A stretch of DNA of 52,780 bases. Origin: an uncultured Candidatus Saccharibacteria bacterium (GTDB lineage Bacteria; Patescibacteriota; Minisyncoccia; Phycocordibacterales; UBA9973). Position 1 is the stretch's first letter, and the number at the start of each line of letters is the position of its first letter. The stretch covers positions 91,771-144,550 of the forward strand of contig CAYPQU010000001.1 in assembly GCA_964412965.1 (NCBI GenBank), given 5' to 3'. A model generated the notes under the pieces. It saw nothing but the letters and a program-made list of their open reading frames with translations, did not search any database and was not told the origin of the DNA. Below, one piece after another: positions 8,338 through 52,680 of this stretch. A program made the position numbers and the translations under genes.

Positions 8338-10038
8338 ATGGTTATATCATTTGACGATGAAAAACAGATAAAAGGTCTTGAGGATTTGAGAAAACAAGAA
8401 GAAGAAAATCTCATTGAGTTTATTGCTCAAGCTAAATACGGAATACCTCCTATCAATCTAGCTGGTATGACAATAGACAATGATGCTCTTAGAGCAATTA
8501 CCGAAAAAGAAGCAAGAGAATTTGGAATAGCTCCCTTTAAACTTGTTGGTAAAAATTTACACATAGCGATCAGGTCTCCCCAACCAGAAAAATTACAACA
8601 ACTAAGTGAGTACTTTGTCTCTAAAAAATATAACCCTTATTTTTATATGGCATCAATGGCCAGTCTTGAAAAAGTATGGGAAAGATACAAGGAATTGTCT
8701 TATGCTTCAGAATCTAAAATAGGAACTGTTACAATCACAGGTGAGGCTTTGCAAAAAATAATACCTGAAATTAAAAATGTAGACGATATCACCAGGCTCA
8801 TCAAAGAAGCAGAGAAAGAAAAAATCCGAACAACTTCAAAAATACTAGAAGTTGCAATTGCTGGAGCGATTGCAGTTAACGCATCCGACATACATTTTGA
8901 ACCAGAAGAAAAATTTGTTCGACTAAGATTTAGACTAGATGGAGTTCTTCAGCAATTAATGGAGATCTCCCCAGAAGTTCATAAATTCATCAATTCTCGA
9001 ATAAAACTTATTTCAGGATTAAAAATAACAACCAGTGAAGCAGCTCAAGATGGGCGATTTAGTTTCTTTTTTGGAGATGATGAAATTAATCTCCGTGTTT
9101 CTTTTATGCCAGGTGCGTACGGGGAATCAATAGTTTTACGTATTCTTAATCCAAAATCTATTAGGCATGAACTTGAAGAATTTGGAATAGAACAAAAACT
9201 GTACGATGTTTTTATGGATGAAATCAAAAAACCAAATGGTTTAATTCTTTTAACAGGTCCAACCGGTTCAGGTAAAACAACCACCTTGTATGCATTTTTA
9301 CAAAGAATTTATTCCAAGGAAATAAAAATAATTACAATTGAAGACCCTATCGAATATCACCTTCCTGGCATTTCGCAAACACAAGTCGATGAAGACAAGG
9401 GTTATACATTTTTCTCAGGATTAAGGTCAGCCCTTCGACAAGACCCAGATGTGATAATGGTAGGAGAAATTCGAGATCCAGACACAGCAAAAACAGCAGT
9501 TGAATCAGCATTAACAGGACACCTTGTTTTTTCTACCCTTCACACCAACAATGCTGCGGGAGTTATCCCAAGACTAATCGATCTGGATGTAAACTCAAAA
9601 ACTCTAGTTTCTGCGTTATCACTTTCTATTGCTCAAAGACTAGTTCGCAAGCTCTGTGATAATTGTAAAAAAGAAAAACCTTTCACCGATAAAGAAAAAA
9701 ATCTTGTCCTAGATATTTTAAATAAAGCCAAAAATAATGGTAAGGATATTGATAATTACGGAGTAGATATGGGTAAAGAATTTATTACCTATGAAGCAGT
9801 AGGCTGTGATAAGTGTAATCACACGGGGTATCATGGGCGAATAGGAATTTTTGAAGCCATTAAAACCGACGAGGAAATAGAAAAGATTATTCCACTAAAC
9901 CCTAGTGAAAGAGAAGTTAAAAAAATAGCCAACACTCAGGGAACATTAAATTTAAGAGAAGATGGGATAATAAAAGTCTTAAAAGGAATCACTTCTTTAG
10001 AAGAAGTAGCCAGTGTAGTAGATCTCGCTGAGGAGTAA
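8338..10038 (+). CDS. pilB: GspE/PilB family type IV pilus assembly ATPase
   Basis: ASDIHFEP, GPTGSGKTTT Walker A, TIEDPIEY, LRQDPDVIMVGEIRD, STLHTN, CDNC...CDKC zinc site. Confidence 0.9.
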   Translation: MVISFDDEKQIKGLEDLRKQEEENLIEFIAQAKYGIPPINLAGMTIDNDALRAITEKEAREFGIAPFKLVGKNLHIAIRSPQPEKLQQLSEYFVSKKYNPYFYMASMASLEKVWERYKELSYASESKIGTVTITGEALQKIIPEIKNVDDITRLIKEAEKEKIRTTSKILEVAIAGAIAVNASDIHFEPEEKFVRLRFRLDGVLQQLMEISPEVHKFINSRIKLISGLKITTSEAAQDGRFSFFFGDDEINLRVSFMPGAYGESIVLRILNPKSIRHELEEFGIEQKLYDVFMDEIKKPNGLILLTGPTGSGKTTTLYAFLQRIYSKEIKIITIEDPIEYHLPGISQTQVDEDKGYTFFSGLRSALRQDPDVIMVGEIRDPDTAKTAVESALTGHLVFSTLHTNNAAGVIPRLIDLDVNSKTLVSALSLSIAQRLVRKLCDNCKKEKPFTDKEKNLVLDILNKAKNNGKDIDNYGVDMGKEFITYEAVGCDKCNHTGYHGRIGIFEAIKTDEEIEKIIPLNPSEREVKKIANTQGTLNLREDGIIKVLKGITSLEEVASVVDLAEE

Positions 10039-43434: not shown

Positions 43435-43498
43435 TTCTACTTGTGTTCAGTATTGCCCCCCTGTCCCCGGTTTAAATTTTTAACTAATCTTAATAAAA

Positions 43499-43527
43499 AT
43501 TGTATCACAATCAAGCTCAAAAGTCAA
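43499..43527 (-). promoter_or_regulatory. Sigma70 promoter for the LysM lipoprotein gene
   Basis: TTGACT-17 nt-TACAAT with extended TG. Confidence 0.65.
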
Positions 43528-43574
43528 GACCTATGCCCATATTATTACTTTCCTTTATCCTGTGTATAACTCGA

Positions 43575-43603
43575 TTGACTTAAATCTCCTTCTGGGCTAC
43601 CCT
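43575..43603 (+). promoter_or_regulatory. Candidate promoter for the LysM-M23 gene (long leader)
   Basis: TTGACT-17 nt-TACCCT (weak -10). Confidence 0.4.
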
Positions 43604-43960
43604 TAAATAGTAGGGTTCTTAGATGAGCCCTAATTTGTGCCGAAATCTAGAAATAGCCTTATTTTTTATTGGGCTTTCCGAAAGATTGTAACTTTTACAC
43701 AATAAACACTCAGACTTCAGCTTTCGCTTTGGCGGTCGGACTAGAAGTTCCTTTGTGGAGGTGTGGATGTGTAATATATTTATTTTATAGAAAACCAAAC
43801 TACAAAAGCAGAAGAGGGTTCATATTCTTCAAAAAGCCCCTTTGCTAAAATAGCCTTATCTAATAAGTCTTTAACCACAAAGGCTTGGTTCTTTTTTGCC
43901 ATTATTTTTGCTTTTACCAGCACCCCAGGCGTAGCCAGTGCTGGTCTTTTTTCTAATTTA

Positions 43961-44956
43961 TTGGGCGATTCGACCAATAAAGCAGAAGGATCTTCTGTCG
44001 CAACCGGAGAAACAGGATTTGTTCACAACTCGCAAACAATGCCTTTATTGGAAACACTTTCTATTAATCCTGATACAAAAAATATTTCAATCGATGAAGA
44101 TATCATAATTATTCAAGATGATTCTTTTATATATAACAACGCCCCTATTGATATGGGTATTTCATACGAGAAGAGTTCAATCTCTGACAAGATGTATGTT
44201 TATACTGTTCAAAAAGGAGATACTCTTTCTGAGATAGCCGAACTTTTTGATATTTCTACAAATACTATCCGTTGGGAAAACAAAATTTCAGGAGAAAAAA
44301 TATCAGTTGGTCAAAAATTAAATATTTTGCCGGTTACAGGTGTTAGACACACTGTTCAAAAAGGGGATACTATAGTTAAGATAGCTAATAAGTACGAAGC
44401 AGAATCAGAAGATATTTATATCTTTAATGATTTAACCAAAGAAAGCACTCTTAAGATTGGGGATATAGTGTTCGTGCCTAACGGTATTATTAAGCCTCAA
44501 GTGTCTGTTTCATCCGCTAAGACTTCTAGTTCTTCCTCAACTAAATCATCAAACACTAAAGCAGAAAGTGGATATTACATAAGACCTGTTTCTGGTATTG
44601 TTTCCTCTCCTTACGGTTCTCGAAAAGGTGGATTCCACTACGGAATAGATATTGCCAATAAAAGAGGCACACCTATCAAAGCAGCAGCTTCAGGGGTAGT
44701 GGTAAAAATTGTCACTGGCTGTAAAGAGGGTAATTCTAGTTGTGGAGGAAGATATGGTAATTATATAGCTGTCCAACATGCCAATGGAACAAAAACAATT
44801 TACGCACACTTGAATACAGTAGGAGTATCTTACGGTCAAAATGTTTCTCAAGGAGAAACTATTGGAACACTTGGAAACACAGGAAGGTCTACTGGTCCAC
44901 ACTTGCACTTTGAAATTGAAAATGCTAATGGATCAAAGATGCGTCCTCCATTTTAA
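43961..44956 (+). CDS. 2x LysM plus M23 metallopeptidase (peptidoglycan endopeptidase); true start probably upstream of the TTG
   Basis: YTVQKGDTLSEIA and HTVQKGDTIVKIA LysM; HYGIDI (HxxxD), GYGN-like YGNY, STGPHLHFE (HxH). Frame is open from 43775 and encodes a signal peptide before 43961. Confidence 0.9.
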   Translation: MGDSTNKAEGSSVATGETGFVHNSQTMPLLETLSINPDTKNISIDEDIIIIQDDSFIYNNAPIDMGISYEKSSISDKMYVYTVQKGDTLSEIAELFDISTNTIRWENKISGEKISVGQKLNILPVTGVRHTVQKGDTIVKIANKYEAESEDIYIFNDLTKESTLKIGDIVFVPNGIIKPQVSVSSAKTSSSSSTKSSNTKAESGYYIRPVSGIVSSPYGSRKGGFHYGIDIANKRGTPIKAAASGVVVKIVTGCKEGNSSCGGRYGNYIAVQHANGTKTIYAHLNTVGVSYGQNVSQGETIGTLGNTGRSTGPHLHFEIENANGSKMRPPF

Positions 44957-45051: not shown

Positions 45052-45089
45052 CCACCATCGCTGCAAGCGATCGCTTGCAGCGATGGTGG
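45052..45089. repeat. Perfect 38-bp loopless palindrome
   Basis: CCACCATCGCTGCAAGCGA|TCGCTTGCAGCGATGGTGG. Confidence 0.95.
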
Positions 45090-51930: not shown

Positions 51931-52680
51931 TTAATGAGCTCCTGCTAAGAGAATCATCGCGGCTACGCCGATGCCAATAAAAAATAGAGGCATAACAGAC
52001 TTTCGCGTTTTTGAATCTTTGTGAAGTATCGGTATTAAATCAGCGACGGCAACATATATGAACCCTCCTGCTGCTATGGGCATAAGCCAAAGCGCAAATC
52101 CTTCGGTGGTCGATCCGAAAATTATGGCCACTATTGTTCCTAAGAGTGCCGCGCTGGCAGAAATAAAATTGTAAAGAAGGGCTTTTTTCTTTGAAAAACC
52201 AGAATGAATTAAAACAGCAAAATCCCCTATCTCCTGAGGTATTTCATGAAGGACTACCGCAATGGTGGTTGCGACACCAAGAGGAATGCTGACGATAAAG
52301 CTTGCACCGATAATTATACCATCAATAAAATTATGAAACCCGTCGGTCAAAAGAATCATTCTTCCGGCTGGGTGAATTTCTGAATGTTCGCAATCTTCGC
52401 CGTGATGGTGCCAATGGATAAATTTTTCGATAATAAAAAATATAAGGATACCACCAATAATTAAAAGACTAACAATATGTTCATCTAAGCCACTTTCAAA
52501 TGATTCGGGGATGATGTGGACAAAAGCTCCACCCAAGAGAGCTCCGATAGCAAGACCGATAAAACACCCAATATATTTTTTAAGAATATTTTCTTTGACA
52601 GCCAAAGATATAATTCCGATAAAAGAAACGAGGCCAACAATGGCCACACTTAGAATTGCGTATAAATAATTTGTAATCAT
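51931..52680 (-). CDS. ZIP family divalent metal (zinc) transporter
   Basis: GGAFVHIIPES, HWHHHGEDCEH loop, DGFHNFIDG, HEIPQEIGDF, AAGGFIYVA. Confidence 0.93.
   Translation of the reverse strand: MITNYLYAILSVAIVGLVSFIGIISLAVKENILKKYIGCFIGLAIGALLGGAFVHIIPESFESGLDEHIVSLLIIGGILIFFIIEKFIHWHHHGEDCEHSEIHPAGRMILLTDGFHNFIDGIIIGASFIVSIPLGVATTIAVVLHEIPQEIGDFAVLIHSGFSKKKALLYNFISASAALLGTIVAIIFGSTTEGFALWLMPIAAGGFIYVAVADLIPILHKDSKTRKSVMPLFFIGIGVAAMILLAGAH

Follow-up and report, generated by a model that had tools for sequence, protein, structure and literature searches.

The window analysed here is a stretch of 52,780 nucleotides (nt) deposited under an uncultured Candidatus Saccharibacteria bacterium (GenBank assembly GCA_964412965.1, contig CAYPQU010000001.1, positions 91,771 to 144,550), and it contains on its + strand a gene for an M23/LysM peptidase whose signal peptide is encoded upstream of the start codon that gene callers select. 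We compared this gene, and the intergenic region that precedes it, with about 50 distinct orthologous loci gathered from genomes and metagenomes, all of them of the Paceibacteria type. These comparisons suggest that translation probably begins at a conserved AUA codon at 43787, which would be used independently of any Shine-Dalgarno (SD) sequence and which lies behind a structured leader RNA. The features of the gene that bear on this reading are the following:

43787-44956, + strand: full M23/LysM peptidase gene as proposed, 389 codons and a stop (from Pfam, translation, and the ratio of nonsynonymous to synonymous substitution rates, dN/dS)
43787-43789, + strand: AUA, the proposed initiation codon; the consensus structure leaves the surrounding A/U-rich stretch unpaired, and the homologous codon is conserved
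43787-43942, + strand: predicted signal peptide of 52 amino acids, with a long hydrophilic n-region and cleavage after VASA
43844-43846, + strand: GCT at the position of the 'MKI' methionine, where most orthologs have the ATG used by gene callers
43961-43963, + strand: TTG called by open reading frame (ORF) finders, 3' of the signal-peptide cleavage site; orthologs encode the signal peptide upstream of it

Judged by its domains, the product is a LysM-LysM-M23 cell-wall endopeptidase and the gene is intact. Pfam searches recognised M23 (PF01551) at 108 bits and LysM (PF01476) twice, and the catalytic motifs HxxxD (HYGID) and HxH (HLH) are both preserved. The M23 frame is open from 43775, and the 62 codons before the called TTG contain no ATG, GTG or TTG and encode a clear signal peptide (...KAWFFFAIIFAFTSTPGVASA, with GLFS after the cleavage site), as the original prediction had described. 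The window has 46 ORFs of more than 120 codons, and this one is the sole outlier among them: the distance from the preceding stop to the first canonical start is 62 codons, versus at most 26 in the others. As read from the translation, TTG 43961 is not the true start; the near-cognate codons found in frame in this stretch are ATT 43778, ATA 43787 and ATA 43850. The hydrolase is widely conserved among Paceibacteria and is routinely mis-called, with database proteins that begin inside or after the signal peptide (P0002, P0006-P0008), so that the enzyme appears cytoplasmic and its export is missed.

A gene without a canonical start may be a pseudogene of the clade to which the window belongs, or the product of an assembly error, and both a sequencing error and a nonsense mutation had been entertained for this locus. 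The replacement of the 'MKI' ATG by GCT would agree with decay of this kind, to which we nevertheless give hardly any credence. The sequence was recovered in many wastewater, sludge and digester metagenomes, and contigs from eight independent DNA runs, derived from several studies and strains, show no indel between 43767 and 43790, no sense codon at 43772 and no extra T that would restore an ATG-led frame. Variation among these contigs consists of strain substitutions at 43765, 43766 and 43777/78 and of an extra T after 43751. Five related genomes or contigs have an identical layout (L001, with 97% protein identity, L002, L004, L084 and L085), the region is transcribed and, as noted above, the catalytic motifs are intact. 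Moreover, dN/dS over the 389 codons is 0.10-0.11 (against L001, L004, L002 and L084), a value of 0.10 that extends to comparisons between clade members all of which lack the ATG. The M23 gene is under strong purifying selection, and the agreement of the DNA runs together with this low ratio contradicts an error or a nonsense mutation. The synonymous rate (dS) is 0.09-0.31 in the first 58 codons (43787-43960) versus 0.20-1.37 in the remainder of the gene, which fits a constraint at the RNA level around the initiation region that extends into the ORF. We also considered an alternative genetic code and dropped it; the other long ORFs are intact under table 11, and two adjacent in-frame stops lie upstream of the start in L001 and L016.

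The ortholog comparison located the onset of the conserved frame. At the codon homologous to 43787 we found ATT in 22 loci, ATA in 20 and ATG in 7; the frame statistics that follow refer to the 42 distinct ATT/ATA loci, with the 7 ATG loci used for comparison. The 42 loci share a conserved 'CTT AT(T/A)', in frame and 18-22 codons before 'MKI'; the window has 'TTT ATA' there. From the ATT/ATA to the 'MKI' codon the frame of the gene contains no stop in 805 codons, versus 56/763 and 84/763 in the other two frames, and the length of this extension varies by whole codons only (18, 19, 21 or 22). Over the 57 nt upstream of the ATT/ATA there are stops in all three frames, with an in-frame stop in 40 of the 42 loci, which in L106 falls one codon before its ATA. 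Likewise, the distance from the GCGGTC motif of the leader to the start codon is 0, 1 and 2 modulo 3 in 16, 12 and 14 loci, respectively, and thus the frame is not kept upstream. In the seven ATG loci the ATG occupies exactly the ATT/ATA position in a like context (TTAT-G-CAA versus TTAT-T/A-C/AAA), and in L116, where the extension is 9 codons, it is the sole possible start. Because the frame is conserved only from this codon onwards and some loci have ATG there, the start position of the family would be the codon at 43787.

The alignment of ortholog 5' ends, a check that accompanied the original prediction, showed ATT or ATA in place of a canonical start in 42 loci. Several subsets of loci narrow the choice of codon. 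The 'MKI' codon is ATG in 28 loci, GCT in 6 (the clade of the window among them), GTT in 5, ACG in 2 and GAG in 1, with AAT in L087, so this internal ATG has been lost in at least 7 lineages. L017, L018 and L133 combine an ATA with an 8-codon extension; their 'MKI' methionine is deleted, and no ATG, GTG or TTG precedes the hydrophobic core. L001 and L084 have no near-cognate codon other than the ATA between the n-region and the in-frame stop that comes before it, and the in-frame stops of these two loci exclude ATT 43778 as the conserved start. The earlier suggestion of non-canonical initiation is therefore supported for ATA 43787, where the conserved frame begins across about 50 loci, and not for ATT 43778. 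The metagenome-assembled genomes of L004, L005, L008, L010 and L013, which are titled 'uncultured Candidatus Saccharibacteria', group among Paceibacteria/Minisyncoccota loci in the tree, and their labels are probably wrong.

Initiation could also take place at a near-cognate codon further downstream, chiefly at ATA 43850 (the Ile of 'MKI'), in which case the protein would begin with a short classical signal peptide, (M)ALSNKSLTTKAWFFF..., and the upstream stretch would be untranslated or occasionally translated. We consider this unlikely, even though the codon lies near the position of the ATG of most orthologs, the resulting n-region would be typical, and the Ile is always ATA and never ATT in the 42 loci, a pattern that suggests selection at the nucleotide level. 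A start at 43850 would leave unexplained both the lack of in-frame stops and the triplet-only indels of the extension, and it would also leave unexplained the upstream ATG in 7 loci, including L116 with its 9-codon extension.

The extension contains a further element in many loci. In L121, L119, L141, L097, L102 and others, the 20-25 nt that directly precede the internal 'MKI' ATG (e.g., AGTTCTAAGCAATTAGAACT) hold a hairpin whose loop is of the GNRA type (GCAA) and whose stem shows compensatory changes. This hairpin sits within the coding N-terminal extension, and the clade of the window has lost both the hairpin and the internal ATG.

Upstream of the proposed start codon, the intergenic region is conserved far beyond the needs of a ribosome-binding site. 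The elements recognised in it, as predicted from pattern matches and from the leader alignment, are the following:

43561-43569, - strand: DnaA-box-like site, TTATACACA on the - strand and read as TGTGTATAA on the + strand (pattern match)
43575-43603, + strand: predicted promoter, with -35 TTGACT at 43575-43580, a 17-nt spacer and -10 TACCCT at 43598-43603
43611-43786, + strand: candidate structured 5' leader RNA of the M23 mRNA, about 175 nt (alignment A2, RNAalifold, pair counts)
43611-43632, + strand: leader helix 1 of the consensus structure
43656-43659 with 43671-43674, + strand: leader helix 2 of the consensus structure
43695-43774, + strand: 3' module of the leader, closed by helix 3 (covariance model R1)
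43695-43701 with 43768-43774, + strand: helix 3, UUACACA with UGUGUAA, which closes the 3' module
43706-43709 with 43761-43764, + strand: helix 4, ACAC with GUGU, inside the 3' module
43732-43738, + strand: invariant GCGGUCG, in the inner hairpin of the 3' module
43748-43751 with 43757-43760, + strand: helix 7, UUCC with GGAG, inside the 3' module

The hexamers of the promoter and their spacing are conserved in 38 aligned loci, and transcription is predicted to start near 43610, which would place the 5' end of the mRNA near 43611-43613. The leader is transcribed. Contigs assembled from RNA span 43613-43965 in seven of eight runs, this being the most often recovered part, whereas no contig of the eight runs covers 43484-43612 and one begins at 43613 (the depth is low, and we take this as supporting evidence only). 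The DnaA-box-like site precedes the -35 by a few bases, and nearly all of the 38 loci retain TGTGNAT(A/T)A at this position. This site lies outside the RNA and is a possible operator; the window as a whole shows no enrichment of DnaA boxes (5 found versus 2.6 expected).

The consensus structure was derived with RNAalifold from an alignment of 34 leaders (A2) and comprises 33 pairs in 7 helices, arranged as two 5' hairpins followed by a multi-helix module that the long-range helix 3 closes. In total, 94.8% of the cells are paired, versus 38-52% in controls in which the partners were slid by 1-3 columns. Compensatory two-sided changes were found at 18 pairs (97 cells), and none of 500 shuffles reached the observed values. 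Because G-U pairs are frequent, the structure can be assigned to the + (mRNA) strand. The 3' module measures about 80-110 nt, and covariance model R1 found a single match in the window (43674-43790, 88.5 bits), the next score being 16.7 bits. The fold of the single leader sequence is no more stable than that of shuffles (z = -0.68), and the claim of structure therefore rests on covariation. A scan of Rfam 15 gave no family match to the leader, either in the window (E up to 10) or in the leaders of five related loci (E up to 1), where the only hits were terminator-like hairpins downstream of the gene; the lysM-TM7, lysM-Actino, lysM-Prevotella, M23 and ydaO models did not match the leader either. 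We therefore regard it as a previously undescribed candidate cis-regulatory RNA. The 12-mer AAATAGCCTTAT occurs twice at this locus, at 43651-43662 (leader helix 2) and at 43848-43859 (the 'KIAL' codons); the second copy could be a rival partner for the GGGC strand of helix 2, or the repeat may be a coincidence in AT-rich sequence.

The leader structure also bears on two sequence elements that were initially taken for translation signals:

43757-43761, + strand: GGAGG, originally read as an SD site; 3' strand of helix 7 and first base of helix 4
43767-43790, + strand: 7-codon ORF MCNIFIL-stop with the GTG-TAA at 43769-43774; bases 1-8 of the ORF fall within helix 3 or next to it

By their letters, these elements are as the original prediction had stated. 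GGAGG is present; GTG 43769 is followed directly by TAA 43772 in the M23 frame; and ATG 43767 opens MCNIFIL-stop, ending with TAG at 43788-43790, in the frame from which a -1 shift would enter the M23 gene. The letter pattern of a start-stop element is complete, with 7 nt between GGAGG and GTG-TAA and 5 nt between GGAGG and ATG 43767. As translation signals, on the other hand, they lose their footing, because their bases are strands of helices 7, 4 and 3 and SD sites are scarce among the genes of the window. Alignment pairs 176/188 and 179/186, in the GGAGG region, show compensatory changes. A start codon followed by a stop (GTG, TTG or ATG with TAA, TAG or TGA; e.g., GTG-TAG, GTG-TGA, TTG-TAA, ATG-TAA) occupies this place in 29 of the 42 loci, while about 13 lack a start codon there (GCA, ACA, GAG, GCG, GTA-CAA, ATA). 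Conservation of a start-stop was rejected as the explanation, since these bases pair with the upstream UUAYRY and change in a compensatory manner. As for the 7-codon ORF, it is kept only in the clade of the window (the window, L001, L002, L004, L084 and L085); in other clades the homologous bases fall in all three frames relative to the gene or have no start codon, and the ORF is probably not a functional upstream ORF.

The same bases allow a reading by termination and reinitiation. Ribosomes bound at GGAGG would translate the ATG 43767 ORF or the GTG-TAA, stop at UAG 43788-43790 or UAA 43772-43774, and restart at the overlapping AUA. The geometry is suggestive, as UUA-UAG overlaps AUA 43787 to form an AUAG like the common AUGA overlap, GGAGG is suitably placed 5 and 7 nt before ATG and GTG, and L016 and L130 each independently have an ATG-led ORF that ends UUA-UAA over their ATA. 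Start-stops and AUGUG double starts are, in addition, functional in Escherichia coli (10.1101/520783; PMC9841429), and the NTG-stop pattern recurs in the 29 loci mentioned above. This route is nonetheless improbable in our view, given that the bases in question form helices 3, 4 and 7, and that the variants GCA-TAA, ACA-TAA, GAG-TAA and GTA-CAA lose the start and keep the pairing. Furthermore, the element occurs in all three frames, SD sites are scarce, and most clades have no ORF that ends at the start codon.

A programmed -1 frameshift from the MCNIFIL ORF at U-UUA-UAG, which would give MCNIFIL-IENQ..., appears highly improbable. In favour of this route, the frame of the ORF is the required one, the ORF is retained across the six-member clade of the window, and some distant orthologs (P0013/L094 and P0028) read '...CNYLIRLIQ...' in frame with the gene. 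Yet there is no X-XXY-YYZ heptamer, as the 0-frame reads AUA UUU AUU UUA UAG, and outside the clade the 'CNY' bases fall in any of the three frames, usually without a start. The similarity of the 'peptide' is explained by the conserved nucleotides of an RNA helix, with the ATG at the foot of helix 3. With the heptamer missing and the upstream ORF restricted to one clade, the recoding by a -1 shift that had been put forward for this gene is not supported.

The module and the start codon are linked across loci. All ATT/ATA loci carry the module (the 42 and a further 14 found with R1) and none of the 7 ATG loci does. We distinguished type A, with the module and ATT/ATA, from type B, which has no module, an ATG and an N-terminus MQLNQ... 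(L007, L095, L096, L107, L113, L116 and L124). The ATG loci are scattered on the protein tree, and at least 6 changes are needed to account for them. The leaders of four type-B loci are 66-74% alike, versus 56-60% between them and the leaders of their sisters on the protein tree; the L096 extract, of only 60 nt, scored 51-55% and was excluded from the former range. Repeated co-evolution or co-loss of module and start codon, which we considered, was tempered by this greater resemblance of type-B leaders to one another than to those of their tree sisters. Instead, the pattern is probably that of two old 5' cassettes exchanged whole by recombination among Paceibacteria. The module-bearing and module-free cassettes constitute a natural paired comparison.

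Taken together, we infer both the initiation of ribosomes at AUA 43787 and the regulation of this step by the leader. According to the mechanism that we propose, the mRNA from about 43611-43613 would carry the structured 5' leader of about 175 nt, and ribosomes would be recruited, with no SD involved, to the stretch that follows helix 3 (UAUAUUUAUUUUAUAGAAAACCAAACUACAAAAGC), which is rich in A/U and poor in G. Initiation would take place at AUA 43787, the first codon of the single-stranded A/U-rich stretch directly 3' of the last helix of the leader. The product would carry a normal signal peptide preceded by a long, hydrophilic n-region. A weak AUA/AUU start behind a folded module may keep the synthesis of a potentially lytic enzyme low. 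The module probably modulates the access or efficiency of ribosomes, and synthesis is probably conditional on the state of the leader (ligand, protein or temperature). A stronger version, in which the 3' module (43695-43774, with GCGGUCG) would license or gate SD-independent AUA/AUU initiation as a riboswitch- or IRES-like (internal ribosome entry site) switch for a lytic enzyme, is in our opinion doubtful.

Several points weigh against initiation at AUA 43787. AUA usually makes a poor start codon, which the initiation factor IF3 proofreads. Neither a purine tract nor any other recognised element for recruiting ribosomes lies 5-12 nt before 43787, the nearest GGAGG being 25 nt upstream and base-paired. 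The N-terminal peptide that would arise from the AUA start would be cleaved off with the signal peptide. Codon-position entropy in the extension is 1.05, 0.98 and 1.06 bits at positions 1, 2 and 3, with no third-position excess, and the evidence for coding therefore consists of the open frame and the triplet indels and not of amino-acid conservation. The second in-frame ATA at 43850, with AAA-ATA invariant in all 42 loci, could be the start or an additional start. Lastly, if the cassettes were exchanged whole, the link between module and start codon is real but its functional weight is that of two haplotypes.

Non-AUG starts of this kind are documented in bacteria. AUA and AUU are known start codons that work in E. 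coli extracts, and in Staphylococcus aureus they give roughly 10-30% of the output of AUG (PMC5499595; PMC13009471). Conserved AUU/AUA starts are found in infC and pcnB of E. coli and in infC, cvfC1, ccpN and citZ of S. aureus (PMC13009471). The M23 gene shares with the infC/pcnB/ccpN/cvfC1 class the conserved AUA/AUU, the AUG in some relatives and the truncation by gene finders, and a low and tunable output would be expected. On the other hand, every one of the S. aureus genes has a strong, extended SD at a suitable distance (PMC13009471), whereas the M23 gene, known here from its sequence, has no adjacent SD and its proposed start follows an RNA module. A conserved AUA/AUU start without an SD, in a lineage with hardly any SD use and directly behind an RNA supported by covariation, would be a combination that is not among the described cases, in which non-AUG starts lean on a strong SD. 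A literature search on non-canonical starts in Patescibacteria found nothing relevant.

The leader has counterparts in the lysM-TM7, lysM-Actino, lysM-Prevotella and M23 motifs and in the ydaO c-di-AMP riboswitch, which are also structured RNAs in the 5' untranslated regions of cell-wall hydrolase genes (Weinberg et al. 2017, PMC5737381). Like the lysM and M23 motifs, it is a covariation-supported candidate cis-regulator with no known ligand and with lineages of the candidate phyla radiation among its carriers (PMC5737381). It differs from these motifs and from ydaO in its two 5' hairpins and helix-3-closed module, in its proposed non-AUG start and in the lack of a match to their models. As a candidate leader of an autolysin-type gene in ultrasmall episymbiotic bacteria, it would add to the lysM and M23 motifs without a known ligand. 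By its letters, AUGUGUAA preceded by GGAGG looks identical to the start-stops and AUGUG/GUGUG double starts (Meydan et al., 10.1101/520783; PMC9841429). Unlike in those elements, the letters of the M23 leader are the 3' strand of a helix, their variation is compensatory, and about 13 of the 42 orthologs have no start.

An SD-like motif was found in 4 of the 38 long ORFs of the window, which suggests that the organism hardly uses SD sites. In this respect the window is like SD-independent lineages such as Bacteroidetes, with almost no SD motifs and with A/U-rich, unstructured starts (PMC7797042). The Bacteroidetes work concerned AUG starts and a sequestered anti-SD (PMC7797042), whereas the M23 case would concern an AUA start.

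Two observations concern the surroundings of the gene. Downstream of the M23 stop, at 45052-45089, there is a perfect 38-nt GC-rich palindrome with a T run behind it, which scores as an intrinsic terminator; weak Rfam 'L20_leader' matches at the same place in related loci probably correspond to the same terminator-like hairpin. Elsewhere in the window, many genes have a TATAAT-like box that ends 5-10 nt before the ATG (e.g., at 52680, 40781, 31887 and 4006 on the - strand and at 8338 and 20582 on the + strand), which suggests that leaderless mRNAs, or mRNAs with very short leaders, are widespread.

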